Source: an uncultured Candidatus Saccharibacteria bacterium (GTDB lineage Bacteria > Patescibacteriota > Minisyncoccia > UBA6257 > 1-14-0-10-44-23). Taken from it: a stretch of 64,000 nucleotides of DNA. Of this stretch, positions 2,976 to 39,473 are shown piece by piece; the first letter of the stretch is position 1, and the number at the start of each line of letters is the position of its first letter. Made by a program: the position numbers and the translations under genes. The notes under the pieces are model-generated. The model was not told the origin of the DNA. It did not search any database and saw only the letters and a program-made list of their open reading frames with translations. The stretch lies in NCBI GenBank assembly GCA_964549935.1, contig CAZJVT010000001.1, positions 27,922 through 91,921 on the forward strand, given 5' to 3'.

Positions 2976-4823
2976 ATGACCTCACTCAACCCAGACCAAG
3001 ATCGTGCCGTAAACCATCCAGGAGGCCCACTTTTGATGGCGGCTGGTGCCGGATCGGGCAAAACCAGGGCTTTGACGAGCCGTTTAAAGGCGCTTATTGC
3101 CCGGGGAATACCGCCGCACGAAATCGTGTCGATTACCTTCACTAACAAAGCCGCCAAAGAGATGCGCGAGCGCGTTTTTGGTAAAGAGCGAGCCGAGATG
3201 AAGTGGACGCCTTATTTTCCTGTTTACGGGGAACCTTTCATCGGTACCTTCCACTCGTTTGGCGCCAAACTTCTTAAGAATGAGGCTGCGCTGCTCGGAC
3301 GAACGCCGGCTTTTTCGATTTTTGATGATGATGACTCGGCGGGCATCATCAAACAAATTCTCAAGGCGATGGATTTGAGCAAAGAGCTCTTTAAGCCAAA
3401 AGTGCTGGCTGGCCGCATCAGCTCGCTAAAGAGCGAACTCAAGGGCATCTCCGAACTCTACGAGTCCCCGGACAACCGTGACCAAATTTTCGCCGAGATT
3501 TTTACGCGTTACGAACAGGCTCTTAAAGCAAATAATGCCTTCGACTTCGATGACCTGATCGCCAAACCGGTGACGCTGTTTCACTCGCACCCGGAGATAC
3601 TGCAAAAATATCAAAAGCTTTTTAGCCACATCCTGGTCGACGAGTACCAGGACATCAACACCTCGCAGTACCAACTCGTGCGACTCCTCGCGCGTGAGCA
3701 TAAAAATATCAGCGTGGTCGGCGATGACTTCCAATCAATCTATGCATTTCGCGGTGCCGACTTCCGTAACTTTTTAAATTTTACGAAGGACTGGCCAAAT
3801 GCCACGCTCATTAAGCTCGAGCAGAACTACCGCTCAAGCGCCAATATCATCGAGGCCGCCAATGCCGTCATTAAAAACAACACCGTCCAGACACCAAAAG
3901 ATTTGTGGACCGAGAATCCGGCGGGGGACAAGGTTCGCATTGTAGCAGCAAACGACGGCGATTCAGAAGCCGCCTGGATAGCGGGTGAGATTTGGAATCT
4001 GCGCCGACAAAACCCGGATGCCGAGATCGCAATTTTATATCGCACTAATGCGCAGTCGCGCGCGATTGAGCAATCGCTGCTTTCGGCCAATCTTCCTTAC
4101 AAAATCTTTGGCGGGCTAAAGTTTTACGACCGCAAAGAAATCAAAGACGTCCTCGCCGGACTTCGTTTGGCCAACAACCCGCTCGATACTATGAGCGCCG
4201 AGCGACTCCAGGCCTCACTCGGCAAACGCGCGAGCGCACCGGTTATCACCGCCATGCAAGCGGCAGGAGACAGGGGCCAGGAGACAGGAGACAGCGCAGA
4301 GAAAAAAGGGATCGCCGTGATCATCGATACCTTTATGCGCTCTGCCAACTACTTATCATTTTTGGAAGAAAAGTTTACCAACGCCCAGGAACGCACAGAA
4401 AACATCATGGAGCTTGTGCGTTTTGCCGGGGAGTTCGAGAGCCTCGCGGAGTTTCTGGAACGTGCCTCGCTGCTACAATCCGCTGATACACCCAGCGATG
4501 CGCAGGGAAGTAATGCAAACCCGGTTAACCTGATGACGATTCATATCGCCAAAGGTCTGGAGTTTGACTACGTCTTCATCATCGGCGTTAATGAAGGTAT
4601 GCTGCCGCATGAGCGCTCGATGGATAAGCTCGACCAGGTAGAGGAGGAGCGCCGCTTGATGTACGTCGCGATGACTCGAGCCCGCAAGCGGCTCTACGTG
4701 CTCTTTCACGCCTTTGCCAGCCGTTTCGTGTATGAAATCCCGCGAGATATTTGCGAATTCATCAGCTGCGATGGCTTAAGCGACAAGCTGCGAGATGAGG
4801 ATGAGATGTGGATCGAAAACTAA
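2976..4823 (+). CDS. UvrD/PcrA/Rep superfamily-I DNA helicase
   Basis: N-terminal LNPDQDRAV...AGAGSGKTRALTSR Walker A and helicase motifs throughout, plus a C-terminal VAMTRARKRL motif. Confidence 0.8.
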   Translation: MTSLNPDQDRAVNHPGGPLLMAAGAGSGKTRALTSRLKALIARGIPPHEIVSITFTNKAAKEMRERVFGKERAEMKWTPYFPVYGEPFIGTFHSFGAKLLKNEAALLGRTPAFSIFDDDDSAGIIKQILKAMDLSKELFKPKVLAGRISSLKSELKGISELYESPDNRDQIFAEIFTRYEQALKANNAFDFDDLIAKPVTLFHSHPEILQKYQKLFSHILVDEYQDINTSQYQLVRLLAREHKNISVVGDDFQSIYAFRGADFRNFLNFTKDWPNATLIKLEQNYRSSANIIEAANAVIKNNTVQTPKDLWTENPAGDKVRIVAANDGDSEAAWIAGEIWNLRRQNPDAEIAILYRTNAQSRAIEQSLLSANLPYKIFGGLKFYDRKEIKDVLAGLRLANNPLDTMSAERLQASLGKRASAPVITAMQAAGDRGQETGDSAEKKGIAVIIDTFMRSANYLSFLEEKFTNAQERTENIMELVRFAGEFESLAEFLERASLLQSADTPSDAQGSNANPVNLMTIHIAKGLEFDYVFIIGVNEGMLPHERSMDKLDQVEEERRLMYVAMTRARKRLYVLFHAFASRFVYEIPRDICEFISCDGLSDKLRDEDEMWIEN

Positions 4824-5620
4824 TTATTGCTATGGGAGAAAAGCTTGGCCAACATTTTTTAATTAACACTGGGGCGATAACAAAAATTATTGCTGGACTC
4901 CAACTGCAAAAAGGGGAGGGCGTTATTGAAATTGGCCCAGGCGCGGGAGCACTCACGAAGCCGCTCGCCGAACTCTGCGCTCAATTAAACTGTAAACTGC
5001 AGTGTATCGAAAAAGATCCTGAATTAGTTAATTCGTTAGCTAGTGAATTTGTTAGTTCGCAAAACGTAGAAATAATCAGCGGAGATGCTCTTATTGAACT
5101 TCCGAAGCTAACTAACCAACTAACCAAGCAACTAGCTAACTATAAAGTAGTCGGCAATATCCCGTACTACATCACCGGGCACTTGCTGCGCACGATAGGG
5201 GAGCTCGAGCACAAGCCGGCGGTTACAGTGCTCATGATCCAAAAAGAAGTGGCGGAGCGCCTTACCGCAGAAGCTGGAGCAAACAATCTGCTCGCCGCTG
5301 CGACCCAGATTTGGGCAGATGCAGAACTCCTTTTTAAATTGCCACCGAAAGACTTCGACCCGCCGCCGCAGGTTTGGTCTGCGGTTATTAGACTCACGCA
5401 AAAAAAATCTCAACCGACACTGGAGGCAGCGAAAAAGTATTATGACGCGCTGCATGTCATTTTTAAGCAACCGAGAAAAACGCTCCTGAACAATTTGAGC
5501 GAAAAAGTCAGCAGGGAAGAGGCTTGCGAGCTCCTCGAATCTCTCAAATTACCCGAAAAAACTCGCCCTCAAGACCTCTCTCTTGAGCAGATTCAGAGAC
5601 TGGCGGCTACGCTCGCCTAG
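4808..5620 (+). CDS. rsmA: 16S rRNA (adenine1518/1519-N6)-dimethyltransferase RsmA/KsgA
   Basis: LGQHFL motif, GPGAGALT SAM-binding motif, 270 aa. Overlaps the helicase 3' end by 16 nt. Confidence 0.8.
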   Translation: MDRKLIIAMGEKLGQHFLINTGAITKIIAGLQLQKGEGVIEIGPGAGALTKPLAELCAQLNCKLQCIEKDPELVNSLASEFVSSQNVEIISGDALIELPKLTNQLTKQLANYKVVGNIPYYITGHLLRTIGELEHKPAVTVLMIQKEVAERLTAEAGANNLLAAATQIWADAELLFKLPPKDFDPPPQVWSAVIRLTQKKSQPTLEAAKKYYDALHVIFKQPRKTLLNNLSEKVSREEACELLESLKLPEKTRPQDLSLEQIQRLAATLA

Positions 5621-8479: not shown

Positions 8480-10879
8480 ATGGCTGCATTTCTTAAAAAG
8501 ACAAAGTTGCTAAAATGGCTCATCTGTAGCGGCTTTGTATTGACAATAGCTGCAGTGGTGCTTTTGCTACCTTCCCACTCGGCAAATGCTGCTTGGTACA
8601 ACCCAATCGACTGGGTTACGGGTAGCTTTTCAATGTTCATCAATGCCGCGCTGCTTGGAATTCCTTACATTTTCGGCTTAGTTGGCGGCTCGATCCTTAC
8701 ATTGGCGAGCCTCTTAACCAGCTATTTCTTTACCCTCAACACCGAGATACTGCCCGACAAGTTCCATATGATAGAAAATGGGTTTCGCATTTGCTTGGGC
8801 ATCGCAAACCTCATCTTTGTCATCGCACTCATCATTATTGCTTTTGCAACCATCTTGAATGTCCAGGAATATTCTGCGAAAAAGCTTCTTGGAAAACTCA
8901 TCGTAACTGCAGTCCTCGTTAACTTCAGCTATTTAATTGTCGGCGTCTTTCTTGATATGAGCCACGTACTCACGATGTTCTTTATATCCGGTGGGGGAGT
9001 GGCTAATGTCGGGGCAAAGTTCGGCGAAAGCATCGGCGCTATCTTGCAGCCACAGAAATTCTTGGTGACGCCAGACATCGCGAACCTATCAACTACGGTC
9101 TTTTCCTCTGAATGGTTACAAATGGTGCTTGGAGCAGTTATGGGCTCTATTTTTACCTGGATTGCCGCTATCGTCATGCTTTCAATCGCCATAATGTTCC
9201 TCGTCCGATATATCTACTTAGCGGTACTCATCATCCTAATGCCTCTTGCCTGGTCTCTACCTCTGATCCCGGGGATGAGCGAAATGAGCAGTAAATGGTG
9301 GAGCAAGTTTACACAGCAGGTTCTTTACTTGCCCGCCGCCACGTTCTTTATATACCTTTCGATGAGATTAGCGCTTTCCCTGCAGTCATCACATGACGGA
9401 TTCTCAACCGACCTCGCAAACACAACCACTTCCTACAGCAACCTTCCGTTCGCTCCCCAGCTTATCATGCAGATGATCATCCCAACAGGCTTCCTGGTCG
9501 CATCACTGATAGTCGCCAGCAAACTGGGAGGGGCGGGAACTGGATTCGGCCTTAAAATGGCGAATAAAGTAGCTGGCTTTGCGGAAAAATATGCAAGAGG
9601 TGTCGGCAGCAAAGTTTACAGCTACCAGAGAAATGGCAAGAGCATCGAGGCTGGGGTTAAAAAGCTAGCTGGCGCCGGAAGCAATGCTTTAACATGGCAG
9701 GGGCCTCAGGGTGATGGCAAACTTAAGAAAGGCCTCCGCGGCTTAATTCAAGGTGGTCGCGCAGTAGCTACCGGTGGAGCATCGAAGCAAATTGCAGGTC
9801 AACTAACTGAATTTAGCAAAGACAGGGAAAGCGCTCTGGAGGCCGCCAAAGCTTCACTGCACGACCTTGGAGAAGATCAACTTAACGACATGTATCATGA
9901 CGCGAAACATGCTCCGAAAGATGATACTGAATTCTATGCTGCAGTGGAGCATGCCGTCGAAGAAGGCGATATTGACCACCTGGACGCCTGGATGAGCGAT
10001 GACGCAACTCGCGCACGTATCGTCGCAACGGCAAAGATGTTTGATCCGAAGGCCGCTAAAGACCTCACGAAGAGCAAAACTCTTAAGGCCCTTGCGCAGT
10101 ATGACCCTCCGCATGCCGCCCTTATCACGGGACAGACCACCGAAGCCGTTCTTGGCGGTATGGATGCCAAGGCCTTACAGTCTATGAAAAAAGATGCTCT
10201 CTCGGATGAGAAGGTTATTAATGGCCTAACCCCAAGCCAGCTGGCAACTGCGGCTAGGGGCTCTGGCGAGCGTGAGCAGCTCATTAGCGATGGGCTCAAC
10301 GCCGTTGCCGCAAAAGAGATGGCTGCCCTTAATGACACAAGCCCTGAGGTAGTGGCGCTGAAAAACGAGGTGGCTGCAAAAAAACTTGAAATGGCTGCGG
10401 CAGTGACTGCAGGAAATAAAGAGCTCGAGAAAGAACTTCAAAGAGAAATCAATAAAATTGAACGTAGCATCAATAATATTCCGAAAATCAAATCGGCTGG
10501 AGCCGAACTTGCAGCTCTGGCTGGCAGTCTAGGATCAGCTAAAGATAAAACGGGCTACTACGGCTCCCTTGAAGATGCGAAAGAAGAACTTAAGGCTGCT
10601 CTAGCGCGTGGCGATACGGTGGTTGCTAAAAAATTTGCAAACTCGATGGATATTATTCAAAAACAAATCAGCGACGCTCGCGATAAACAGAGCAGGATCA
10701 TCTCTGACATGGACCTTAACGACCCGGTGATGAAAACGAACACCGCCCTGCGCGATTCACTTAAGGGCATCGACAGTTTGGCGAATAATATCGGCTCCGT
10801 TGTTTCGCAAGAGAAGAAACCGAAAAAGGAGCATGCTCATGCTAAAAACTATTTTGGCGGGGGCGGAGGTGGCCATTAA
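8480..10879 (+). CDS. VirB6/TrbL-like polytopic membrane protein with long C-terminal coiled-coil extension
   Basis: Signal/anchor followed by ~7 hydrophobic helices in the first ~350 aa. A ~450-aa hydrophilic A/K/E-rich tail ends in GGGGGGH. Confidence 0.5.
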   Translation: MAAFLKKTKLLKWLICSGFVLTIAAVVLLLPSHSANAAWYNPIDWVTGSFSMFINAALLGIPYIFGLVGGSILTLASLLTSYFFTLNTEILPDKFHMIENGFRICLGIANLIFVIALIIIAFATILNVQEYSAKKLLGKLIVTAVLVNFSYLIVGVFLDMSHVLTMFFISGGGVANVGAKFGESIGAILQPQKFLVTPDIANLSTTVFSSEWLQMVLGAVMGSIFTWIAAIVMLSIAIMFLVRYIYLAVLIILMPLAWSLPLIPGMSEMSSKWWSKFTQQVLYLPAATFFIYLSMRLALSLQSSHDGFSTDLANTTTSYSNLPFAPQLIMQMIIPTGFLVASLIVASKLGGAGTGFGLKMANKVAGFAEKYARGVGSKVYSYQRNGKSIEAGVKKLAGAGSNALTWQGPQGDGKLKKGLRGLIQGGRAVATGGASKQIAGQLTEFSKDRESALEAAKASLHDLGEDQLNDMYHDAKHAPKDDTEFYAAVEHAVEEGDIDHLDAWMSDDATRARIVATAKMFDPKAAKDLTKSKTLKALAQYDPPHAALITGQTTEAVLGGMDAKALQSMKKDALSDEKVINGLTPSQLATAARGSGEREQLISDGLNAVAAKEMAALNDTSPEVVALKNEVAAKKLEMAAAVTAGNKELEKELQREINKIERSINNIPKIKSAGAELAALAGSLGSAKDKTGYYGSLEDAKEELKAALARGDTVVAKKFANSMDIIQKQISDARDKQSRIISDMDLNDPVMKTNTALRDSLKGIDSLANNIGSVVSQEKKPKKEHAHAKNYFGGGGGGH

Positions 10880-10896
10880 TCTACTAGCTAATTATT

Positions 10897-11622
10897 ATGG
10901 CTGATGAAATAAAATATCCTTTCGAGTTACTGCCCGCTGAAATCAAAAAGTGGCTCATCTCCGATGATGCCACTGAATTGGTCAGCAGGATTAACCGCGA
11001 ATGCATGCTTGAAGGAGGAAAAGCTCGTGCTGTGGCAACGCTCATCACGTGGATCGCTATCGACGCAGTCGCGCCGGAAGACACAGCTAATGAATTAATA
11101 GCAAGCTTTGGTTTAGAGCCCGCGCAGGCGCAGATCGTCGCCAAAGAAATACAACAAAAGATTTTTCTGCCTATAAAGCCGCTCATGCGCGCCAAATTAG
11201 GTATAGATATCGAAAAAATAACGACGGGCCCTCTTGCAGCTCCGGTCGCCGGTCCAGCCGCCCAGATCACTAAACTCGCCAAACCATTTGTAGCCGACAT
11301 TCGCAAGCCGGAGCAGGTCGCGAAACCGCAAGCAGCGATGCCACAGGCAAAACCAGTGGCGCCGACAAATACTGCGAAAAAGGGGGAAATCAATACACAA
11401 TTTGGCTTTGTCGAAGTAATGCCGACTCCGCCTCCAGGCTTCAAAGAGGAGTCGCTCGCTCCACCGGCAACCGCGATGCAGACAGCGAAGCCGCCTGCGC
11501 AGCCAGCACAACATCAGGCTGCGCAACCCTCCGTGGCGCAACAAGCTCCCGGACAGCCGGAGCAAGCGCCGAACGATGTCGTGCCATACAAAGACGAGCA
11601 TCCCTTGGACCCGAAGAGTTAG
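10897..11622 (+). CDS. hypothetical protein with Pro/Ala/Gln-rich C-terminus
   Basis: 241-aa ORF. Its stop codon is the first TAG of a TAG-rich array. Confidence 0.4.
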   Translation: MADEIKYPFELLPAEIKKWLISDDATELVSRINRECMLEGGKARAVATLITWIAIDAVAPEDTANELIASFGLEPAQAQIVAKEIQQKIFLPIKPLMRAKLGIDIEKITTGPLAAPVAGPAAQITKLAKPFVADIRKPEQVAKPQAAMPQAKPVAPTNTAKKGEINTQFGFVEVMPTPPPGFKEESLAPPATAMQTAKPPAQPAQHQAAQPSVAQQAPGQPEQAPNDVVPYKDEHPLDPKS

Positions 11623-11651
11623 CTAGTTAGCTGGTCGTTGGTTAGTTAGCC
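11619..11651. repeat. TAG-rich (GTTAGNN)n array; left arm of imperfect inverted repeat flanking the four-helix-bundle gene
   Basis: Sequence ttagctagttagctggtcgttggttagttagcc ends 1 nt before the ATG at 11653. It shares CGTTGGTTAGTT / GTTAGTTAG cores, in inverted orientation, with 12004-12038. Confidence 0.5.
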
Positions 11652-11652
11652 T

Positions 11653-12015
11653 ATGGCTGAAAACTTTAAAAGTCTGAAGATATGGCAGCAGGCGGAGTCT
11701 CTGACTGTTACAGTTTATGAGTTAACGAAGAAGTTTCCAAAAGAAGAAACATTCTCTCTCATTGACCAAACTCGTAGAGCAGCTAATTCGGTCGGTGCCA
11801 ATATTGCTGAGGCCTCTGGCAGATGGGGAACAAAGGACAAAATACAATTCCTTATGTTTGCGCGTGGCTCGATTATGGAAGCACGTAGCCACCTCTCGCT
11901 AGCCCATAGACTAAAATACCTCTCAACAATAGACTATACTAAGTTAGAGGGTGAATACGACCTTTTGGCGCGCAGTCTTAACGCGTTTATCAAAAGCATC
12001 AAGCCAACTAACTAA
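11653..12015 (+). CDS. four-helix-bundle protein (23S rRNA intervening-sequence protein / Avd-like family)
   Basis: 120 aa. WQQAESLTVTVYELTKKFPKEE...ANSVGANIAEASGR...ARGSIMEARSHL matches the family signature from memory. Confidence 0.65.
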   Translation: MAENFKSLKIWQQAESLTVTVYELTKKFPKEETFSLIDQTRRAANSVGANIAEASGRWGTKDKIQFLMFARGSIMEARSHLSLAHRLKYLSTIDYTKLEGEYDLLARSLNAFIKSIKPTN

Positions 12016-12038
12016 CGACGAACTAACCAACGGCTACT
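12004..12038. repeat. TAA/CTAA-rich array; right arm of inverted repeat flanking four-helix-bundle gene
   Basis: Sequence ccaactaactaacgacgaactaaccaacggctact contains the gene's stop and ends at the ATG of the next gene (12039). Confidence 0.5.
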
Positions 12039-12401
12039 ATGCAGTTCCAAGTCCCTCAATTCTTAGATGTCCAAGACACTATCTTTGGCCCGCTTACGCT
12101 TAAGCAGTTTCTTTACTTTGCCGGCGCAGGCGGCTTAAGCTTCATACTTTTTTTTGCGCTACAGACTTGGCTCTGGGCGGCGATAACATTCTTAATGGCT
12201 CTTTTGGCAACCGCGCTTGCATTCGGCAAATTTAATGGCCGCCCGATTATCTATATGCTTCTTTCGGCGCTTAAGTTTGCCTGGCAACCGAAACTTTACC
12301 TGTGGCAGTATTCTTCGCCGGCACAGCAAATGCCGGTCCTGCACGGTAGCGAGCAGATGGAGAGGGGATCGGCGCTCAAAAATTTGCTTGCAAAGCTGTA
12401 A
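12039..12401 (+). CDS. PrgI/VirB3-like small membrane protein
   Basis: VPQFLDVQDTIFGPLTLKQFLYFAGAGGLSFILFF resembles the PrgI-family N-terminus (K.ED.IffGLT.RQ...) followed by two transmembrane helices. Sits directly upstream of VirB4. Confidence 0.5.
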   Translation: MQFQVPQFLDVQDTIFGPLTLKQFLYFAGAGGLSFILFFALQTWLWAAITFLMALLATALAFGKFNGRPIIYMLLSALKFAWQPKLYLWQYSSPAQQMPVLHGSEQMERGSALKNLLAKL

Positions 12402-17685: not shown

Positions 17686-17716
17686 TAAAACCGCCTTCCG
17701 GCGGTTTTATGTTTTT
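17686..17716. terminator. bidirectional rho-independent terminator
   Basis: aaaaccgccTTCCggcggtttt hairpin flanked by A and T runs, between convergent genes. Confidence 0.6.
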
Positions 17717-18146
17717 AAATCGGTTTGATGACGACGCAGCGGTCTTTGCCTTCACCGGCGCTCTCGGTCTTCACGTCTGGGCGCATCGAGAGCTCGGTGT
17801 GCACTAAACGGCGCTCGTAAGCATTCATGGCCGGCAGGCGAACCTCTGCCTTGGTTGCAATGACCTTCTGGGCGGCTGCTCGAGCAATCTCGAGGATCAG
17901 CTTTTCGCGCTCTTTGCGGTAGTTGTTGATGTCGATGACATACATCGGCTCATCAGTCTTACGGGCAAGGATTGAGGAGAGGTACTTCAAGTCCTTCACG
18001 AGGTCGGGGACGAGCTTGGCGAACCACTCGTCTTCGTCGGCGGTTACGCTCATGCGGCGGCCGGCCTCATCAATCTCAACGACGGCGTTGCGGAGGCCGA
18101 GGTAGCCGACTATTTTCTTAAGTTTCTCCGGAAGGGTTTCTGACAT
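17715..18146 (-). CDS. jag: Jag/KhpB RNA-binding protein (KH + R3H)
   Basis: R3H motif LPAMNAYERRLVHTEL. Position downstream of yidC. Confidence 0.7.
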   Translation of the reverse strand: MSETLPEKLKKIVGYLGLRNAVVEIDEAGRRMSVTADEDEWFAKLVPDLVKDLKYLSSILARKTDEPMYVIDINNYRKEREKLILEIARAAAQKVIATKAEVRLPAMNAYERRLVHTELSMRPDVKTESAGEGKDRCVVIKPI

Positions 18147-18147
18147 A

Positions 18148-18852
18148 TTAGGAAGTTGTTTTATTTGCGGCGAACTGCTTGGTAATGCTCATCTGTTGGA
18201 AGATAGAGAAAATCGCGGTTGTCGTCAAGTACAACCCGATAGCCGCAGGCAGCTTGAACTGAAACATCACGTACGCGGTCATCACGGGGGCCAGGTAGGC
18301 CATATACTTCGTACTGGCATTTTGCTTGCCGCCGCGCGAACTCGTCTGCTTCACCATCATGTAGCTCTGGAGAAAGCTAAAAATAACGGTGATTGCGATA
18401 ATCACATAGTTCATTTTAGTAACATCGACGAGGCCAAGGAACATCGGGTTGATGGTCGCTGGGGGAGTGATGAACGAGTAAAGGTCTACAAGCGCCGCTG
18501 CGGTGATGCCTGTTAAGAAAATCCTGTACACCGCGAAAAGGATTGGCAGCTGCGCGAAGTTAAAGAAAATGGAAGAGAACGGGTTTGTCCCGTACTTCTT
18601 ATACATCGCCATCATCATCTCCGCCTGCTTGGCCTTGTCATCTTTATAGTCCTTTTGGATGCGCTGCATCTCCGGCTGCATCTGCTGCATCAACATCTGG
18701 CTCTTGAGTCCTTTATAAAAAATTGGATACAGGATGAAACGAATCGCAAGCGTCAGGGCGATAATTGCGATTCCAAGATCGCCGAAGCTAACATACTTAT
18801 AAGAAAGAACGAGGAGATTAAACAGCGGCTGGGTGATGAGTGTATGGAACAT
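18148..18852 (-). CDS. yidC: membrane protein insertase YidC (short form)
   Basis: 234 aa with five hydrophobic helices, a KGLKSQMLMQQMQPEMQRIQKDYKDD region, and rnpA-yidC-jag synteny. Confidence 0.8.
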   Translation of the reverse strand: MFHTLITQPLFNLLVLSYKYVSFGDLGIAIIALTLAIRFILYPIFYKGLKSQMLMQQMQPEMQRIQKDYKDDKAKQAEMMMAMYKKYGTNPFSSIFFNFAQLPILFAVYRIFLTGITAAALVDLYSFITPPATINPMFLGLVDVTKMNYVIIAITVIFSFLQSYMMVKQTSSRGGKQNASTKYMAYLAPVMTAYVMFQFKLPAAIGLYLTTTAIFSIFQQMSITKQFAANKTTS

Positions 18853-18855
18853 ATA

Positions 18856-19176
18856 TTAGGAGGGGATGCGTAAAAGGGAGCGTAATTCCTCAAGGATACC
18901 ATGAGCGGCTGCGTCGCGCGCAGCCCCTTGAACCGTAATAACAACATCAACTGCAGGTTGGGTTAGAATACGCTGTTTGAGGGCCGTATACAAGAGGCGG
19001 CGTAGCGCGTTGCGCTTGGTGGCAAGCTTGATAGCGGAGGCTCCAATAACGACCGCAAACCGGCTATATGAGTACTTCGCCGGTAAAACTTTGATAGTAA
19101 AATACCGGCCTCGCATCAGCGTGCCCCTTACTCGCAGCACTGACTGAACGTTAAGCCGGTATTTCTTTGCAAGCAT
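18856..19176 (-). CDS. rnpA: RNase P protein component
   Basis: 106 aa basic protein (KKYRL...RNALRR) positioned between rpmH and yidC. Confidence 0.7.
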   Translation of the reverse strand: MLAKKYRLNVQSVLRVRGTLMRGRYFTIKVLPAKYSYSRFAVVIGASAIKLATKRNALRRLLYTALKQRILTQPAVDVVITVQGAARDAAAHGILEELRSLLRIPS

Positions 19177-19191
19177 GTGATAAATCGCAGA

Positions 19192-19326
19192 CTAGACGGT
19201 AAGCTTCTTGCGACCCTTACGGCGGCGAGCCTTGAGAACGCGCTTTCCATAGATCGTACGACTGCGCTTTAAGAAGCCATGGGTTCGTGCGCGCTTCTTC
19301 TTTTTAGGCTGGTAGGTTTTACTCAT
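19192..19326 (-). CDS. rpmH: 50S ribosomal protein L34
   Basis: [44 protein letters not shown]. Start placed at the internal Met of the longer track ORF. Confidence 0.85.
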
Positions 19327-19403
19327 ATATTTGTTTCGTTCTATGGTACAAGAAAAAAAATAAAATTGCAAGGGCTTGTTATAAAAAAACAACTCGACTA
19401 TAG

Positions 19404-19412
19404 TTATGCACA
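19404..19412. promoter_or_regulatory. DnaA-box-like 9-mer TTATGCACA upstream of dnaA
   Basis: Matches TTATNCACA in the AT-rich region between rpmH and dnaA. Confidence 0.4.
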
Positions 19413-19503
19413 CCTCGTCCACAGATTATGCAAGAAAGGGAGTTTGACGGGACCCGCAGTGCAACTAGAATTAAGTTTAAATAAATTCGCTCCTCTATTT
19501 CTT

Positions 19504-20928
19504 ATGAATTACAACGACGACGCACTCGTACAAGCAACTGTTTCTTCGCACAACGAAGAACCGATGGACGATGCATCGCTCGAACGCTTGTGGCTGTCGG
19601 CTCTTGGAGAGATTGAGATTCAGGTTTCACGACCCAACTTTGTAACCTGGTTTAAAAACAGCCGCTTCCTGCAGAAAAAGGGGAACCTGGCTTGCGTCGG
19701 ACTACCGAACACCTTTGCGAAAGAATGGATTGAAAACAAGTATTCGAAAGTAGTCCTTGGGGCTTTGCGCAACCTGGAGCAGAGCATTATGAAGGTTGAG
19801 TTCGTCGTCGTCGGAAGCAAGGGGGCGCCGGTTAAGGCCCGCCCGGCTATGCCGCGCGCAGAGGAGAGCCAGATGGCCTTCCCGGAGTTCCGTATCGACC
19901 CGGAAACGGGACTTAACCCGCGCTACTCATTTAAATCCTACGTCGTCGGCAAATCCAACGAGCTCGCCTACGCTGCAGCAACGGCCATCGTCGAAGACAT
20001 CGGCAAGAAATACAATCCGCTCTTTATTTATGGCGGCGTCGGCCTCGGCAAGACCCACTTGATGCAGGCGCTCGGTAACGAAATCGCTGCGAAGTACAAC
20101 AACAAGGTCCGTGTGAAGTACACCCCGGCGGAAAAGTTCACCAACGACGTCATCTGGGCAATTAAAAACAAGCGGATGGACACGATTAAGGAGAAGTACC
20201 GCCTTATCGACGTGTTGATTCTCGATGATATCCAGTTCATCGCCGGCAAACAGGCGACCGAAGAGGAGTTCTTCCACACGTTTAACGCGCTGCACGAAAA
20301 CAACAAGCAAATCATCATCTCGTCAGACCGCCCGCCGAAATTTATGCCGGATCTGACCGAGCGCCTACGCTCCCGCTTCGAAGGGGGCATGATTGTGGAT
20401 ATTAGTTATCCAGACTACGAACTCCGCTACGCGGTTCTCAAGACCAAGGCCCAGGAGCGCAACTTGAACCTCCCGGACAACGTCTTCGACCTGCTCGCCA
20501 ACAAGATTCAGCGCAGCCTGCGCGAACTAGAGGGCATCTTAAACAAGATCCAATTCCACCAGCGGGTGAAACAGGTTGAGATAAACCCTGCTGTTGTCGA
20601 AGAGATCCTGGCTGAGATCCTCCAGGAGCCTGTCCGCAGCATCAACCCGAACGTTGTCATCAAGGCCGTAGCGGACTCGTTCGAAATCTCAATCGTCGAA
20701 ATAACCGGCGCTTCCCGCAAGCGGGAATTAGTTGGTCCGCGCCAGATTGCGATGTTTTTGCTCCGCGACATGCTGGATCTTTCATACCCAAATATCGGTG
20801 ACCGCATGGGTAAACGCGACCACACCACGGCTTTGTACGCCTACGAAAAGATTGCGCAGGAGATAAATAAGAACCAAGCGCTCAACCAAAAGATATTAAC
20901 AATCAAGGAGTTAATAACTAAAGAATAA
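19504..20928 (+). CDS. dnaA: chromosomal replication initiator DnaA
   Basis: GGVGLGKTHLMQA Walker A, LILDDIQF box, and C-terminal DNA-binding domain (RQIAMFLLRDM...DHTT). Start at MNYNDD. Confidence 0.9.
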   Translation: MNYNDDALVQATVSSHNEEPMDDASLERLWLSALGEIEIQVSRPNFVTWFKNSRFLQKKGNLACVGLPNTFAKEWIENKYSKVVLGALRNLEQSIMKVEFVVVGSKGAPVKARPAMPRAEESQMAFPEFRIDPETGLNPRYSFKSYVVGKSNELAYAAATAIVEDIGKKYNPLFIYGGVGLGKTHLMQALGNEIAAKYNNKVRVKYTPAEKFTNDVIWAIKNKRMDTIKEKYRLIDVLILDDIQFIAGKQATEEEFFHTFNALHENNKQIIISSDRPPKFMPDLTERLRSRFEGGMIVDISYPDYELRYAVLKTKAQERNLNLPDNVFDLLANKIQRSLRELEGILNKIQFHQRVKQVEINPAVVEEILAEILQEPVRSINPNVVIKAVADSFEISIVEITGASRKRELVGPRQIAMFLLRDMLDLSYPNIGDRMGKRDHTTALYAYEKIAQEINKNQALNQKILTIKELITKE

Positions 20929-26692: not shown

Positions 26693-28380
<1,688 letters not shown>

Positions 28381-28384
<4 letters not shown>

Positions 28385-28410
28385 TTAGTAGACAGTAGAT
28401 AGTAGACAGC
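28381..28410. repeat. heptamer array (GTAGNNA)x4 + GC at the pilB stop
   Basis: gtagttagtagacagtagatagtagacagc. The first TAG is the pilB stop codon. Confidence 0.55.
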
Positions 28411-28819
28411 ATGGGGCGGGGGCAAGCTGATAAAAAGCAGGAGAGTTTTTGTAATGAAATAAAAGGTAGCTCGGCTTTTTTCCTAGGGAGTAGCGAAAGA
28501 TGCCTCCAGGCGTCGAGTCTGGTGCTCTTCTGATGTTCTATGAAGCCCTGAAGACCGGAGCGGGAGCTCCGCAGTTCAGAGAGCTAGAATTTTTTAATAG
28601 AATATAAAAAGCCGCGCGGATTAACCTCTGTGCGGCCTCCCTACAAATAGAAACAACAATTAGGAGTTAGGAGGCAGGAGAAGTAGCAGCAAGGCAAAGG
28701 CATTTCGGGCGCTCTATAAGCTATCCACAGGTTATCCAGTGTGGTGCTTTGACATATTTTCCGCGTGATATACTAATTTCACGTTTTGATGACCTCTACC
28801 ATTATAGAGGTAGGGGGGC

Positions 28820-28848
28820 TTGACAAATAGGTAGATTGGTGCTATACT
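28820..28848 (+). promoter_or_regulatory. consensus sigma70-type promoter TTGACA-17-TATACT
   Basis: TTGACA at 28820-25, a 17-nt spacer, and TATACT at 28843-48. Confidence 0.45.
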
Positions 28849-28895
28849 GTATCTTAGAAGGGGTGCGCTACGTACCCTTACTACTTTGTTCTTTT

Positions 28896-29064
28896 AAAAC
28901 CGCATAGTAGTGGGCAAAATGGAATGACCCGTTGAATTGGACGACTTGGCTCCGGCTGGGGCGCTCCTCAACTTTATTCTTGGTTTCTTTTTAGATTTTC
29001 TAAGAAAGAACTTTTTATCAGTTTCCTCCCCAGGTGCTGATTTTGCCCACTACTATGCGGTTTT
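28896..29064. repeat. 169-bp element bounded by perfect 25-bp inverted repeats (MITE-like or long closing helix of a structured RNA)
   Basis: AAAACCGCATAGTAGTGGGCAAAAT (28896-28920) is the exact reverse complement of 29040-29064. The interior holds further palindromes. Confidence 0.55.
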
Positions 29065-30316: not shown

Positions 30317-30859
30317 ATGCTTAAGATTTCTGAAGTTCTTGCCAACCCAAGTGGCACCGATAAAAATGCGGAGTACGTTGTGATTCGTAATACTGAGGCT
30401 GCGCCGATTACCGTCTCGGGTTACAGTATTAAGACGGCCGGCGGCAAGGCGATTAAAGTCACCGGCGTTGTGCCGGCGGGCGGGGAGCTGAAGGTGATGA
30501 CCGGCAGCGTCGCGCTTAAAAACACCGGCGACACATTGAGTTTAGTTGGGCCAGCCGGGCAGGTAGTTGATTCGTTTACCTATACAACTGCGGCTGATGG
30601 GCAGGCGCTTCAGCCGGCAGCGTTTTTGACGCCGGAGCTAAAGTCGCAGCTTTTCGATGAGATTGCGACGACTTCACCCTCCCAAATTTCTGAAGGAAAT
30701 TTAGGAGGGCAAGCCACTCCCGCCACTTCGACGCTCTTGCTCGGGATTGCCTGTGCTGTTATCCTAGCCGGGCTTTCGGTGTATGTTTTAAAACAGGTGC
30801 GCTATGACGAAATCATAAGGAATCCTTTCGCAAAGCAAAAGGATTCCAGTAGTCAGTAG
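30317..30859 (+). CDS. lamin-tail-domain (LTD) protein with C-terminal transmembrane helix
   Basis: SEVLANPSGTDKNAEYVVIRNT...SGYSIK motif typical of the LTD. Hydrophobic C-terminus. Confidence 0.45.
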   Translation: MLKISEVLANPSGTDKNAEYVVIRNTEAAPITVSGYSIKTAGGKAIKVTGVVPAGGELKVMTGSVALKNTGDTLSLVGPAGQVVDSFTYTTAADGQALQPAAFLTPELKSQLFDEIATTSPSQISEGNLGGQATPATSTLLLGIACAVILAGLSVYVLKQVRYDEIIRNPFAKQKDSSSQ

Positions 30860-30878
30860 CTAGTAGGCAGTAGTTAGC
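30848..30878. repeat. heptamer array (AGTAGNN)x4 + AGC spanning stop of LTD gene and ending at tsaE ATG
   Basis: agtagtcagtagctagtaggcagtagttagc, followed immediately by ATG at 30879. Confidence 0.55.
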
Positions 30879-31361
30879 ATGAAACAAAAAACAATGAAGG
30901 GCGGGAAGAAAATTCAAATCAAAAATGCAGTCGCGATGCAGAAGTTCGCGGCGGAAATGGCGCGTGAACTTATCGCGCAGCCGCTTGGCAAACATGCGAA
31001 GGTGATTTCTCTTACCGGCAATCTGGGTGCCGGTAAGACGACCTTTACGCAGGGATTTTTGCGTGAGCTCGGTGTCCGTCGCCGCATCATCTCTCCGACA
31101 TTTTTAATAATTCGACCTTACGATTTGAAGGCCGATGAGTACGCCCGTGCGTTTCATATCGATTGCTACCGGCTACAAAAACCGCAGGAGTTGGCCGCTT
31201 TGGGTTTTAAAGAAATTTTAGAAAATCCGGCGAATATTGTTTTGATTGAGTGGCCGGAGATTGTCAGTGAGTTGCTGCCAAGAGAGATTGTTCGAATTGC
31301 GATTGAGCACCCGGAGAGTGGGAGTACCCGCAAAGTGCAAATCGCAAATAGCAAAGCGTAG
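30879..31361 (+). CDS. tsaE: tRNA threonylcarbamoyladenosine biosynthesis ATPase TsaE
   Basis: LTGNLGAGKTTFTQGF P-loop. 160 aa. Confidence 0.7.
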   Translation: MKQKTMKGGKKIQIKNAVAMQKFAAEMARELIAQPLGKHAKVISLTGNLGAGKTTFTQGFLRELGVRRRIISPTFLIIRPYDLKADEYARAFHIDCYRLQKPQELAALGFKEILENPANIVLIEWPEIVSELLPREIVRIAIEHPESGSTRKVQIANSKA

Positions 31362-31444
31362 GGCAGGGAGAGGGGGAGCAAAAACGAGAGAGGTCCGCGG
31401 GCGACCTCCTCGTGGGCGGTCGGCGGACCTCAGATTGCGGCGCC

Positions 31445-31648
31445 CTACATGTAGGGCTGGTAGTGCTCGATGATCGCACCGCCTCCGCGTACCCTGACGA
31501 GCGCGGCCTCCTTGATCGTGGAGTCAGAGTGGTAGCGCTTCCGGAACTTCTCGCTCGCGTCGTTGTCGGACGCGGCCAGGAATCCTTGAGGTGTCGCCAC
31601 TTTGCCGCCGCCTGCTTCGTGATACATGTCGGCTCGGTACCTGTGCAT
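31445..31648 (-). CDS. small hypothetical protein (67 aa) on a GC-rich islet with strong SD
   Basis: AGGAGGT sits 6 nt upstream of the ATG. GC3-rich codons contrast with neighbours. The stop lies in the palindrome CCCTACATGTAGGG. Confidence 0.35.
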   Translation of the reverse strand: MHRYRADMYHEAGGGKVATPQGFLAASDNDASEKFRKRYHSDSTIKEAALVRVRGGGAIIEHYQPYM

Positions 31649-31755
31649 CGGTGTACCTCCTGTAGCCCTTTTTATACTCCTGGCGTAGAATAAAGGCAAG
31701 CAAAATCCCTCCCCGCCGCAGGCGGTACTCCCTTTAGGAAAAGGAGAATAAAACA

Positions 31756-32631
31756 ATGAAAAAGCTCCTACTCATCGACAGCCACGCCCTCATCCACCGT
31801 ATGTATCACGCGATGGCACCACTTACGACGCCAGATGGGGAGCCGATTGGTGCCATCTACGGCTTGTCGCAGCTTTTGATGCGCATGATTACCGAAACGG
31901 TAAAGCCAGATTATGTTGCCGCCTGTTTCGATCGTCCGGAGCCGACGTTTCGTAAAGAGATGTTTGCGGAGTATAAGGCACATCGCGAGGCGACGCCGAG
32001 CGATTTGATTTCGCAAATTATCAAAGCCCGCGAGGTGTTTGCGCAATTTAAAATAAAAATGTTTGAGCTACCGGGATTCGAGGCGGACGATTTGATTGCG
32101 ACGCTCGCGACGAAACTTCATAACGAAAAAGATTTACAAGTTTCGATTTTAACCGGCGACCGCGATTTGCTGCAGCTGGTGCACGCTGATCACGTCGTCG
32201 TTGAGCTGTTTAAAAACGGGGGAGGTGAGACGATACATATGAACGAGGCGGCGGTCATTGAGAAGTACGGCCTCAATCCGCTGCAAATTGTCGACCTGAA
32301 GGGCCTCATCGGTGACCCCTCCGACAATATTCCGGGAATTCACGGCGTCGGCGAGAAAACGGCTACGCCGCTACTCAAAGAGTTCGGAACCGTCGAGGGG
32401 GTGTTTGAAAATCTCGTGATTGTGCCGGAGAAGGTGGCCAAAAAGTTCCGGGGGCACGAGGAGATCGCGCTGAAGTGTAAAAAGCTCGCCACGCTGGAGC
32501 GTAACGTGCCGATTTTCTTGGACTCACTCGAGGACTTAAAAGCATTGCCGCTCGACCGACCGGAGCTGATTTCGTATTTTGAAAAGCTTGGGTTTGTCTC
32601 GCTGATTCGGCGGCTGCGCGGAGAAAGCTAG
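31756..32631 (+). CDS. stand-alone 5'-3' exonuclease (Pol I N-terminal / FEN-like)
   Basis: LLLIDSHALIHRMYHA...GFEADDLIATLA...HhH motif. 291 aa with no polymerase domain. Confidence 0.75.
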   Translation: MKKLLLIDSHALIHRMYHAMAPLTTPDGEPIGAIYGLSQLLMRMITETVKPDYVAACFDRPEPTFRKEMFAEYKAHREATPSDLISQIIKAREVFAQFKIKMFELPGFEADDLIATLATKLHNEKDLQVSILTGDRDLLQLVHADHVVVELFKNGGGETIHMNEAAVIEKYGLNPLQIVDLKGLIGDPSDNIPGIHGVGEKTATPLLKEFGTVEGVFENLVIVPEKVAKKFRGHEEIALKCKKLATLERNVPIFLDSLEDLKALPLDRPELISYFEKLGFVSLIRRLRGES

Positions 32632-32666
32632 AGTTTCTGGCGAAATTCTGGTGGTATACTAATTCT

Positions 32667-33572
32667 ATGAATGCTCGCGCATCCTCGCGCCTTGTTGGTT
32701 TACTAAAAAAGCCGGAGGTGCAATTTTTCTTGATTTCGCTTATCCCGCTAATTGCGGTTTTTATTGTTACCAGAATCTATATTCCGGTAGAGCAGCAGCC
32801 CTTTATGGATGTCGTTTTGCTCGGCATGTTCGGGATTATTACGTATCAGATGATTTATTCGGTCTATATGCACGCAAAGCTGGCGGAACGGGAGCGGGCC
32901 TTTTTGAGCGTTTCGGCACACCAAATGCGTTCGCCGCTGACTGCGGTTAAATGGATTTTGTCGGAGATGGGTAAGAATGACAACAAGCCCGAGGAGCGCA
33001 AAGATTTAGCTCGGGTCGGGGATGTCGCGGTTACAAAGCTCAACAACATTATTGATGCGTTTTCGGCCATGGCTCGCGTTGATGAGGGTGCGACCGAGGA
33101 GCGCATGGCGAATATTGATATGTGCGAAGAGATCGAGAAGTCTGTTGAGGCTGCAGAGCCTGTCGGAAAGCAGTACGGCGTTGCCGTCCACTTTGAAGGG
33201 CCGTGCGAGGAGCTTTGGGTGCGTGCCAATCCGGTAAATCTGGAGATGGTTTTTTCGAATCTGATTAACAATGCGATTAAGTACAATCACCGAGGAGGAA
33301 TGGTCGCAGTTGGTGCACGCAAGGTTCACGGCGGGAGTCAGATTGAGGTGATGGTACGCGACACCGGTATGGGCATCCCGCCAAACGAACAGGGGAGGAT
33401 TTTTGAGCGATACTTCCGTGGTGCACAGGCGCAGCGGGTTAACGAGGCCGGTTCCGGACTCGGACTCCACTTAACCAAAACGATTATCGAGCAGCACGGC
33501 GGGACGATCTGGCTCGAATCAATCCATGGCAAAGGAACGACGTTTCACTTTACGCTTCCCACGACGAGGTAG
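32667..33572 (+). CDS. sensor histidine kinase (HisKA + HATPase_c)
   Basis: H-box SAHQMRSPLTAV, N-box NLINNAIKYN, G-boxes DTGMGIP / GSGLGL, and two N-terminal transmembrane helices. Confidence 0.75.
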   Translation: MNARASSRLVGLLKKPEVQFFLISLIPLIAVFIVTRIYIPVEQQPFMDVVLLGMFGIITYQMIYSVYMHAKLAERERAFLSVSAHQMRSPLTAVKWILSEMGKNDNKPEERKDLARVGDVAVTKLNNIIDAFSAMARVDEGATEERMANIDMCEEIEKSVEAAEPVGKQYGVAVHFEGPCEELWVRANPVNLEMVFSNLINNAIKYNHRGGMVAVGARKVHGGSQIEVMVRDTGMGIPPNEQGRIFERYFRGAQAQRVNEAGSGLGLHLTKTIIEQHGGTIWLESIHGKGTTFHFTLPTTR

Positions 33573-33601
33573 TAGATAGGGGGGCGGGGTTTGAATTTTT
33601 G

Positions 33602-33632
33602 CTGACTACTGTCTACTATCTACTGACTACTC
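33602..33632. repeat. heptamer array in inverted orientation (CTGACTACT...) before mutM, paired with partial forward copy GTAGTAGATAGG at 33569-33580
   Basis: The reverse complement reads AGTAGTCAGTAGATAGTAGACAGTAGTCAG. It forms a hairpin with the upstream copy across a GGGGGGCGGGG spacer. Confidence 0.5.
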
Positions 33633-37650: not shown

Positions 37651-38412
37651 ATGTTTGCCTACCTCTACGGACCAGACACGTATCGCCGGGGTCGGTATCT
37701 GCGCGAGCAGCTTCTGGCTCCGTATCACAAGAAGTACCCGGACGGGAGCGTCGGCGTTTTTGATTTGCTCGAGGAGGATGCGGTCGCAAAGCTGCAGAGT
37801 TTTAGTGGCGGCACCGGACTTTTTGCGAAAACAGCGCTGGCCGTTGTGTATCATCCCGAGGAGGGGGAGAAGGAGTTTGTAAAATTTTTGAAAGAGGTCG
37901 GGGAGTCTACGGCAACGACGGTTATTGTCGTGGCCGACAAAAAACTGACGAAGGAGTTTGCATTTTTGATGAATGGTAAAGAAAAAGAGTTCGAGCCGCT
38001 CTCCGGTTTGGATTTTCTTAAGTTTATTAAAGCGGAGGCAAAGACGCTCGAACTCGCTGTGACGGACGTGCAGCTTAAGGCGATAGGCGAGGCTTACGAC
38101 GGCGATACCTGGGCGGCGATGACCGAGATTGAGCGAGTGGCCGCCGGCGGCGCTATCGAGCAGCACACCATCGTCGTGGACTTCATGGGCCTCCTGCGCA
38201 CACTCTCGGCGGGCAGAAATTTGCCGGCCTTGCTGCGGGCGCTCACGCTCCTGACTGACTACGATGAGCCGGCTAAAGTTTTTAATCTCCTGGGCGCATT
38301 CGTTTACGGTAGCGCGAAGATAAAAATGGCCGACTACGACCTGGCGGTTAAAACAGGGAAGCTGGAATACCCCGAAGTCCTACTGGACTTTGTATTAGGA
38401 GCTAGTAGTTAG
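37651..38412 (+). CDS. possible DNA polymerase III delta subunit (HolA-like)
   Basis: MFAYLYGPDTYRR... N-terminus and overall helical pattern resemble short HolA proteins. Weak call. Confidence 0.3.
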   Translation: MFAYLYGPDTYRRGRYLREQLLAPYHKKYPDGSVGVFDLLEEDAVAKLQSFSGGTGLFAKTALAVVYHPEEGEKEFVKFLKEVGESTATTVIVVADKKLTKEFAFLMNGKEKEFEPLSGLDFLKFIKAEAKTLELAVTDVQLKAIGEAYDGDTWAAMTEIERVAAGGAIEQHTIVVDFMGLLRTLSAGRNLPALLRALTLLTDYDEPAKVFNLLGAFVYGSAKIKMADYDLAVKTGKLEYPEVLLDFVLGASS

Positions 38413-38427
38413 GAGTCAGGAGTTAGC
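38401..38427. repeat. heptamer array (AGTAGTT AGGAGTC AGGAGTT AGC) spanning stop of upstream gene
   Basis: gctagtagttaggagtcaggagttagc. The TAG at 38410-12 is the stop codon. Confidence 0.5.
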
Positions 38428-38444
38428 TAAGAGAAGGCATACGC

Positions 38445-38468
38445 AAAAAGACCCTTTCGGGTCTTTTT
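38445..38468. terminator. bidirectional rho-independent terminator
   Basis: aaaaagacccTTTCgggtcttttt. Confidence 0.6.
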
Positions 38469-38493
38469 GCTGCTAGCTTCGGACTACTGTCTC

Positions 38494-38754
38494 CTAGCTA
38501 CTTTTCACTTTGACTGCGAGACGGCCCTTGAGGCGGTTGGCGGTGTTCTTTTTGATGACGCCCACCTTGGCGGCTTTGTCGAGTTTTTGGTAGACGAGCG
38601 CGAGTTCCTTCTTGGCCTCTTCAATCTTCTTACCCTCGACGAGCTTCTTGTAGGACTTGATGACCTTCTTAAGCTCCACCTTTTGAGCGGCGTTTTTCTC
38701 GTAGCGGCGGCGGTTTTGACGAAGCGCCTTTTTGGCTGTACGTGTAACTGGCAT
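38494..38754 (-). CDS. rpsT: 30S ribosomal protein S20
   Basis: MPVTRTAKKALRQNRRRYEKN... Confidence 0.85.
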   Translation of the reverse strand: MPVTRTAKKALRQNRRRYEKNAAQKVELKKVIKSYKKLVEGKKIEEAKKELALVYQKLDKAAKVGVIKKNTANRLKGRLAVKVKSS

Positions 38755-38897: not shown

Positions 38898-39473
38898 ATG
38901 ATTTACTCCCTTTCCGGCATTTTAAAACGTAAGCAGGACACCTGGGCGGTCGTCGAGGTCGCCGGAATTGGCTACAAGGTGACACTGCCGCTGTTTGTGA
39001 TGTCCCGCCTGCCCGCGACCGGTGAGCCGGTTTCGCTCGTCACGCACCACCACGTGCGCGAGGACGCCAATGACTTATACGGCTTCTTAAAAGATGAGGA
39101 GCTTTCGCTTTTTCAGTCGCTCATTTCAGTTAATGGTATCGGGCCGAAGTCGGCGATGGGCATTATGGGTGTGGCACCGGTTAACGAGCTTATCGCGGCA
39201 ATTAACGAGGGCCGCGTCGATCTTTTGTCTAAGGCCTCCGGGGTAGGCAAGAAGACGGCCGAGCGGGCTATTTTAGATTTGAAGGGCAAGCTCTCGTTTG
39301 GCGACAATACTGCGACAATCGGTAAGATGGAGTCAGACAGCGAGCTCGAGGAGACGCTGGTCGGGCTTGGCTACAGTAAGGCGCAGGCGAAAACAGCGAT
39401 TGCAAAGCTTGACCCAAAACTTACCGACTTCCACGAGCGACTGCGGGCAATCTTAAAGGAGTATAAAAAATAA
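38898..39473 (+). CDS. ruvA: Holliday junction DNA helicase RuvA
   Basis: MIYSLSGIL...GIGYKV OB domain plus HhH motifs (VNGIGPKSA, ASGVGKKTAER). Confidence 0.8.
   Translation: MIYSLSGILKRKQDTWAVVEVAGIGYKVTLPLFVMSRLPATGEPVSLVTHHHVREDANDLYGFLKDEELSLFQSLISVNGIGPKSAMGIMGVAPVNELIAAINEGRVDLLSKASGVGKKTAERAILDLKGKLSFGDNTATIGKMESDSELEETLVGLGYSKAQAKTAIAKLDPKLTDFHERLRAILKEYKK

Follow-up and report, generated by a model that had tools for sequence, protein, structure and literature searches.

A four-helix-bundle gene between inverted repeat arrays in a bacterial type IV secretion operon, and its likeness to 23S rRNA intervening sequences

The closest described relatives of the element reported here are the intervening sequences (IVSs) of 23S rRNA that carry an open reading frame (ORF) of the S23p family, as in Leptospira and Coxiella burnetii. 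In C. burnetii, the IVS has a 28-bp terminal inverted-repeat stem, which RNase III cuts mid-stem, and the S23p start is preceded by GACAGAT heptamers in two or three tandem copies (PMC4990558). Insertions in the rRNA of candidate phyla radiation (CPR) bacteria also carry an S23p-type ORF (PMC11270868). The element examined here lies in a stretch of 64,000 nucleotides from an uncultured Candidatus Saccharibacteria bacterium (contig CAZJVT010000001.1; hereafter, the window). It consists of an S23p-family gene (11653-12015, + strand) and the inverted repeat arms on its two sides, and it is located not within an rRNA helix but between two protein-coding genes of a type IV secretion system (T4SS) operon. 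Our analysis indicates that this unit is probably a selfish gene cassette of the rRNA-IVS type whose home is an mRNA operon instead of 23S rRNA.

Short periodic repeats between genes have been described separately. In cyanobacteria, intergenic heptamer repeat arrays are known as short tandemly repeated repetitive (STRR) sequences. Xanthomonas genomes each contain ~70 convergent pairs of GGGAATC repeats, which have been studied as G-quadruplex formers, and Nostoc carries intergenic heptamer arrays of the form GGGGA(C/T)T (PMC4692102). The TAACTGA arrays of Beggiatoaceae provide stops in three frames and abut start codons without a Shine-Dalgarno sequence (PMC4679880). A further related protein is Avd of the diversity-generating retroelements (DGRs), a pentameric barrel that binds an RNA stem-loop (PDB 4DWL, 8UB7). 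Within the ribonucleoprotein of DGRs, an 11-bp RNA stem-loop is contacted by each of the five Avd protomers, and the final avd codons pair with downstream RNA (bioRxiv 10.1101/2023.10.23.563531). The present locus joins four literatures that lack cross-citation on this matter: those on 23S rRNA IVSs, on the S23p family (structure solved, functionless), on DGR Avd, and on intergenic heptamer repeats, the last represented by the Xanthomonas and cyanobacterial repeats with Beggiatoaceae TAACTGA as a related case.

The cassette and its arms in the T4SS operon

The cassette ORF begins with ATG and encodes a four-helix-bundle (4HB) protein of 120 aa. The protein matches PF05635 (23S_rRNA_IVP) with an E value of 1.9e-34 and 118.5 bits, compared with a cut-off of 33.8, and TIGR02436 ("four helix bundle protein") with 113 bits, compared with a cut-off of 24. 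An AlphaFold model of the monomer contains four helices (pLDDT 93.7) and is closely similar to XCC0516 of Xanthomonas campestris (2GSC; TM 0.92, rmsd 0.9 Å), which a sequence search with the cassette protein also retrieves at E 2.2e-16. Similarity to BT_0352 (2RLD) is lower, at TM ~0.8. Both PDB entries, 2GSC and 2RLD, were deposited with five chains. The initial annotation, made without database searches, had placed the protein in a 23S-rRNA-IVS/Avd family; membership in S23p/PF05635 holds, but the protein is not Avd proper, as it scores below the Avd cut-offs and resembles Avd only at the level of fold. Comparison of orthologues gives pN values of 0.16-0.27 against a pS of ~0.8, at which synonymous sites are saturated; the cassette protein is therefore under purifying selection. 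The gene is the only copy of its family found in the 64-kb window. A PADLOC scan returned no defence-system match for the cassette, and a defence-system reading was rejected.

The ORF is enclosed by two arms on the + strand, delimited by RNA folding and complementarity. The left arm (11604-11652) forms the 5' half of a predicted stem, and the right arm (12003-12051), which is CTAAC-rich, forms the 3' half. The core of the left arm (11617-11651) is built of GTTAGCTA / GTTAGCTG / GTTGGTTAGTTAG units and ends 1 nt 5' of the cassette ATG; the repeat unit of these arms is 8 nt. The inverted flank cores that drew attention to the locus are exact: CGTTGGTTAGTT (11636-11647) and AACTAACCAACG (12021-12032) are complementary at 12/12 positions. 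Longer arms of 25 nt (11626-11650 / 12003-12027) are 84% complementary. In the minimum-free-energy RNA fold of 11600-12060, ~11604-11652 is paired with ~12003-12051 in an imperfect stem of ~45 bp, and the entire ORF is looped out. Local alignment of the upstream flank with the reverse complement of the downstream flank affords a score of 32. Shuffled flanks (n=500) give a mean of 14.5 (sd 2.3) and a maximum of 24, and the 99th percentile in the set of 359 control ORFs described below is 31.7.

The flanks are stop-codon-rich, as initially described. TAG is present in all three + frames of the left arm, where it includes the stop codon of the upstream gene (11620-11622), and in all three − strand frames of the right arm. 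The claim of zero intergenic slack is loosely right: the spacers on the two sides of the cassette measure 30 nt and 23 nt and are made wholly of arm sequence. The right arm encodes the final three codons of the cassette ORF and its stop (PTN*; CCA ACT AAC TAA) and extends into the first codons of the downstream gene. The cassette displays the anatomy of an IVS, with terminal inverted repeats that enclose the ORF and tandem short repeats that precede its ATG. No promoter-like or terminator-like site was found within 11619-12038; the cassette is therefore presumably read from the operon transcript. At gathering thresholds, Rfam detects no known RNA family in the cassette flanks.

The T4SS operon is reported to be essential for the epibiotic lifestyle of CPR bacteria. 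In the window, the upstream host gene (10897-11622, + strand) encodes 241 aa with no Pfam match and follows a TrbL_3-like gene; its TAG stop falls inside the left arm. The downstream host gene (12039-12401, + strand) is PrgI/VirB3-like (PF12666) and is followed by a TraC-like gene and the gene for the VirB4 ATPase. The PrgI ATG is contained in the base of the predicted stem and faces the upstream stop region. Because jag (R3H), yidC and dnaA (17715-20925) follow the T4SS cluster, the host operon is origin-proximal, an arrangement reported for many Patescibacteria (PMC12102498).

This junction was compared across 80 loci around VirB4 homologues from reference genomes, the best matches being metagenome-assembled genomes of Candidatus Harrisonbacteria and other Parcubacteria. 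Mapping of the operon proteins gives an ancestral gene order of upstream gene, PrgI, TraC-like gene, VirB4. The junction between the upstream gene and PrgI is filled only in the window, in its closest relative L003 (VirB4 87% identical, cassette protein 63% identical), and in L088, a locus found via the 4HB protein, in which a 75%-identical copy of the cassette stands after the same upstream gene. The two next-closest relatives show direct gene joins. The empty junction reads TAA + CAAACAACTAAG + ATG (12 nt) in L004 (VirB4 85% identical) and TAA + T + ATG (1 nt) in L005 (VirB4 80% identical). Six further relatives (L008, L010, L011, L013, L016 and L023) have no cassette gene at the same junction, and their spacers are longer, up to ~230 nt. 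These data support the proposal, already made in the initial annotation, that the cassette is an insertion into the T4SS operon, and it is not a feature of all related T4SS operons. The insertion most likely took place in the ancestor shared by the window organism, a CPR bacterium that resembles Candidatus Harrisonbacteria, and its nearest relative. Within L088 (505-873), PrgI runs in the direction opposite to the upstream gene, the 4HB cassette and the TraC-like gene, which reflects either an assembly error or a real inversion beside the cassette arm.

In relatives, further small cassettes stand at junctions of the operon; these junctions are therefore recurrent landing sites, which marks the T4SS operon of CPR bacteria as such a site. 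A second, unrelated 4HB gene is located between the TraC-like gene and VirB4 in L003 and L007. GxxExxY (TIGR04256) genes stand at operon junctions in L003, L006 and, in truncated form, L007, and 4HB genes of 31-43% identity lie directly 5' of PrgI in L015, L059 and L061. The left arm of the L003 GxxExxY cassette (CAGTAATCGCTAACACGCTAATACGGACGAATATGCCAATGGGG) is tandemly duplicated ~62 nt apart at 4293-4400, with TAA every 7 nt within it.

Inverted arrays around PF05635 genes

A profile scan of metagenome contigs yielded 80 diverse loci and, with the other loci, 89 non-redundant family members. In each, the 90 nt before the start codon were aligned with the reverse complement of the region around the stop, and 359 ORFs from the same loci served as controls. 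The median flank inverted-repeat score is 35 for the homologues and 15 for the controls; 75% of the homologues score above the control 95th percentile and 57% above the 99th. The inverted-array anatomy is the rule for the PF05635 family. Periodicity, measured on the aligned arms after fixed 45-nt windows had given weak results, is 7 nt in 40/67 elements and 8 nt in 13/67, and never 3, 6 or 9. The arrays have a median length of 4.25 units (interquartile range 3.9-4.7), and the units vary between elements (AGGGACT, GGGTCTG, AGTGGCT, GCGAATG and others). The recurrence expected of the flank repeats is borne out for the class of arm, inverted tandem 7/8-nt arrays, but not for the exact flank sequence of the window, which is not a dispersed repeat.

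Arrays of this kind are strongly associated with the gene in the 4HB-selected loci, where 63% of period-7/8 arrays fall within the 6.4% of sequence that flanks 4HB genes. In all the sequence analysed, a 4HB gene is enclosed by 51 of the 62 inverted array pairs (50 detected plus the divergent member L015), and most of the remaining pairs are short ORF-less hairpins. The arms fit closely between the neighbouring genes: relative to the end of the upstream stop codon, the left arm starts at −1 nt (median; interquartile range −5 to +8), and the median distance from the end of the right arm to the downstream start is 11 nt.

In the protein database, the closest homologues found for the cassette protein (56-59% identity) sit in unrelated operons: in L083 between transketolase and PfkB kinase, in L087 between RpiB and Rpe, and in L086 after HSP20. 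Around each of them stand inverted arrays of its own, built of short units that contain stops (GTTAGTCA..., TAATCAG..., and others). Among 67 elements, arm 6-mers are common only to protein pairs of at least 60% identity, and the pairs L120/L140, L134/L121 and L007/L104 share arm units despite dissimilar flanking DNA. As judged from these sequence comparisons, gene and arms are shown to travel together to unrelated sites. The elements L003b and L007 occupy the same junction and are 58% identical. Their arm units are wholly different (GCTGCTAGAT versus TTAGCTNN), yet each pair is still complementary; arm complementarity is thus maintained while the sequence drifts.

One of the 80 metagenome loci, L164, is a true 23S rRNA IVS according to Rfam. 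It has heptamer inverted arms of AGGGGCG units, with a score of 89. In L166, the 4HB cassette (1376-1732; region 1231-1850) is located between two tRNA genes, so that its host is a tRNA transcription unit and not a protein operon. The other 78 of the 80 loci have no rRNA match in Rfam. The initial statement that members of this family are usually found in rRNA IVSs or beside DGRs is not upheld by these frequencies, with 1/80 sampled loci in 23S rRNA and 1/80 between tRNA genes. If the cassette reading is true, the rRNA IVS is a rare case of a common element, whose normal home would be the junction between two co-transcribed genes.

The window cassette shares several features with 23S rRNA IVSs that contain an S23p ORF: the protein family, an ORF on the sense strand of the host transcript, terminal inverted repeats around the ORF with a stem of ~28 bp or more, tandem heptamers just before the ATG, and a sporadic distribution among relatives. 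It differs from them in that its host transcript is a protein-coding operon, and in that its arms are stop-codon-rich and abut a stop codon and a start codon. Moreover, the ORF of the Coxiella IVS is decaying, whereas the cassette protein is under purifying selection.

The crystallised protein provides a link to the published heptamer repeats. Xanthomonas orthologues of XCC0516 are encoded between accB and accC, where the accB stop is followed by GGGAATC GGGAGTG GAGAATC GGGAATC and the accC ATG is preceded by CATTCCC CATTCTC GACTCCC TATTCCC. At least one inverted pair of the published kind thus constitutes the arms of a cassette. The arrays of Xanthomonas, Nostoc and Beggiatoaceae resemble cassette arms more generally, with approximately four tandem 7-nt units at gene junctions, often in convergent inverted pairs. 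In contrast to cassette arms, most of the published arrays enclose no ORF, and the two papers (PMC4692102, PMC4679880) treat them as G-quadruplex or regulatory repeats. A term search of the texts of these papers finds no mention of the 4HB gene family. No publication linking S23p/4HB genes to heptamer arrays was found in a literature coverage that is incomplete, so this is absence of evidence only. The cassette anatomy explains at least some of the published heptamer inverted repeats.

Proposed mechanism and competing explanations

In the proposed mechanism, the unit consists of a left array of 7/8-nt repeats, the PF05635 4HB ORF, and an inverted right array. The ORF would be transcribed by read-through of the operon, and the arms would fold into the ~45-bp stem that loops the ORF out. 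This stem would place the stop codon of the upstream gene beside the initiation region of the downstream one, such that a terminating ribosome could free the PrgI ATG, replacing the 1-12-nt coupling of the empty junctions. The stop-rich arms would end upstream translation in every frame, which would spare the operon any harm from the insertion. To judge by 23S rRNA IVSs, the stem may be cleaved by RNase III. The 4HB protein itself may act on the arms. An Avd-fold protein is encoded in a stem of four to five units, and L003 contains, elsewhere in its genome, an ORF-less hairpin (10347-10454) of the cassette's GTTAG arm type, the corresponding site in the window being a plain terminator; together, these features suggest by analogy that the protein recognises its own periodic arms. 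Such binding is a candidate answer to the question of S23p function. The locus also gives a handle on how a gene can enter between tightly coupled genes without breaking the operon.

Several results weigh against this explanation. Stops in all three frames are present in only 24/67 left arms, and 14/67 have stops in no frame; stop-richness is thus common without being universal, a trait of the lineage and not of the class. Strict co-orientation with the host operon is ruled out family-wide, as only ~78% of cassettes are co-oriented with their neighbours. A motif scan of the 64-kb window did not find the RNase III signature motif. The fold of the whole cassette is only modestly better than those of shuffles (z = −2.1), and the arm mismatches are not biased to sense-strand G.U (47 vs 69), so that RNA-level selection on the stem is not demonstrated. 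A DNA-level hairpin, or homogenisation of the arms by template switching, which is known as quasi-palindrome correction, would fit equally. No mobilising enzyme was found for the cassette. No target-site duplication was seen when filled and empty junctions were compared, the relatives being too diverged for base-level boundaries. Finally, 4HB cassettes cluster in the T4SS operons of CPR bacteria and may therefore have a role connected with the T4SS.

Known classes of mobile cassette are only partly similar. The window cassette resembles MITEs (miniature transposable elements with inverted repeats) and other non-autonomous elements with terminal inverted repeats in its inverted termini, in the existence of ORF-less hairpins of the same arm type, and in its presence/absence polymorphism. 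It differs from them in that neither a transposase nor a target-site duplication is seen. Because the tandem-array arms differ completely between elements, a single shared transposase is unlikely. In integron gene cassettes, the inverted repeats lie within one attC hairpin at the 3' end, whereas here they flank the ORF on either side; a scan of the neighbours, several of which have no Pfam match, found no integrase.

A wider generalisation can be offered tentatively. PF05635 genes with inverted 7/8-nt arrays might constitute one widespread cross-phylum class of selfish cassettes that inhabits heavily transcribed polycistronic RNAs, whether operon junctions, tRNA clusters or rRNA helices, and the intergenic heptamer arrays and hairpins of Xanthomonas, Nostoc and CPR bacteria might be its ORF-less derivatives. 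An Avd-like pentamer might recognise its own arms with about one repeat per protomer, in line with arrays of 4-5 units, and thereby drive maintenance, spread or post-transcriptional control, while the stem would keep the split host genes translationally coupled.

Among the competing explanations, one assigns the arrays to the host. They would be sites of post-transcriptional control, as has been proposed for TAACTGA and GGGAATC, and the 4HB protein would be a trans-acting binder whose non-mobile gene lies between its own sites. This reading gains from the observation that 91/99 arrays in the VirB4-selected loci are away from any 4HB gene, from the five (AGTAGNN)n arrays of the window, and from ORF-less hairpins of the cassette arm type such as that of L003. 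Binding of an RNA stem-loop by all five protomers of the Avd pentamer (bioRxiv 10.1101/2023.10.23.563531) is likewise in its favour. However, the presence/absence polymorphism at the same junction and the near-identical arm-and-gene units in unrelated flanks argue for movement. Host control sites are accordingly an unlikely explanation when taken alone, and they can coexist with the selfish-cassette reading.

A second competing explanation holds that the CPR T4SS has domesticated the 4HB protein as an accessory or regulator and that the flanks of the gene are ordinary operon punctuation. In the VirB4-selected CPR loci, 4HB genes lie a few kb 5' of VirB4 in the window, L003 (two), L007, L015, L059 and L061, and one is found elsewhere (L065); L088, retrieved via the 4HB protein itself, adds one more T4SS case. 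Purifying selection on the cassette protein would also be expected of such a role. Against these points, most related T4SS operons have no cassette, and the T4SS-located copies are mutually only 31-43% identical with unrelated arms. The nearest homologues of the window protein reside in pentose-phosphate operons, and the family also occurs between accB and accC, between tRNA genes and in 23S rRNA. A dedicated T4SS function is therefore quite improbable.

The possibility that the protein is the Avd component of a degraded or distant DGR is more remote by far. Weak Avd matches are obtained with bAvd (22.6 bits, cut-off 40; E 1.6e-4), NF033474 (31.7 bits, cut-off 80; E 1.5e-7) and the PHROG 'Avd protein of DGR' (E 3.4e-9), and the cassette model shares the 4HB fold of Bordetella phage Avd (4DWL) with TM 0.79. 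The pairing of the last avd codons with RNA is paralleled by the position of the last codons of the cassette ORF within the stem. However, identity to 4DWL is 11%, and every Avd score is under its curated cut-off. The absence of rRNA and reverse transcriptase was correctly noted at the outset: Rfam gives only one tmRNA and one tRNA in the window, and no reverse transcriptase occurs among the neighbours within 10 kb, which are T4SS proteins, a T4SS pilin, KsgA, UvrD, Jag, YidC and DnaA, or, in several cases, proteins with no Pfam match. No long direct near-repeat of the template/variable-repeat type was found anywhere in the 64 kb. Identity as a DGR Avd is rejected on these findings. An ordinary small gene with flanks that are alike by chance or low complexity, as the low-complexity arms and the chance recurrence expected in 64 kb of single 10-11-mers from them might suggest, is rejected with near certainty, because 0/500 shuffles reach the observed score and the arrangement recurs in 75% of the 89 homologues with unrelated arm sequences.

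Other repeats in the window

The window contains (AGTAGNN)n heptamer arrays on the + strand at 4265-4295, 28380-28410, 30848-30878, 38404-38434 and 59828-59858, and an inverted one at 33600-33631. They lie mostly at gene junctions, often spanning a stop codon to the next ATG. The sequences at 30848-30879 and 33600-33631 are 91% complementary, are 2.7 kb apart, and enclose tsaE-like, 5'-3' exonuclease and histidine kinase genes. A multi-gene cassette at 30848-33631 was considered and rejected, as the genes inside are housekeeping genes and an accidental inverted pair is as likely given five arrays of the same family.

An ORF-less hairpin lies between co-oriented genes at 38381-38502. Its TAG-rich arms, composed of TTAGGAG / AGTAG units, surround a terminator-like inner hairpin, and it folds with −59.7 kcal/mol (z = −6.1). 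ORF-less hairpins of other loci are similar. At 5022-5140, the ksgA gene (4808-5620) contains stretches rich in GTTAG and in CTAAC. They have 10-11-mers in common with the cassette arms, are inverted in the manner of those arms, and are read in frame without stops. An in-frame hairpin insertion in ksgA is ruled out, because the protein is colinear with B. subtilis KsgA.

Two perfect inverted repeats are also present. The first, of 31 nt (GACCCCACACCCGCCTCGCCTCCGCCCCGCG and its complement, arms 209 nt apart), lies at 40140-40410 inside a Mur-ligase-like ORF (39473-41014), which continues through it in frame with a stretch of low complexity; in a gene that is otherwise ordinary, this has the look of an in-frame insertion of ~270 nt flanked by repeats. 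The second, of 25 nt (28896-28920 / 29040-29064, 119 nt apart), is located in a ~880-nt non-coding stretch 5' of ruvB, in which a good sigma-70-like promoter, TTGACA-17-TATACT, was recognised by eye near 28819-28850. Direct (CGCAAAT)n heptamer arrays are found at 28039-28062 and 31329-31355, of which one falls within a PilB/GspE-like ORF and one at the tsaE-like ORF's end.

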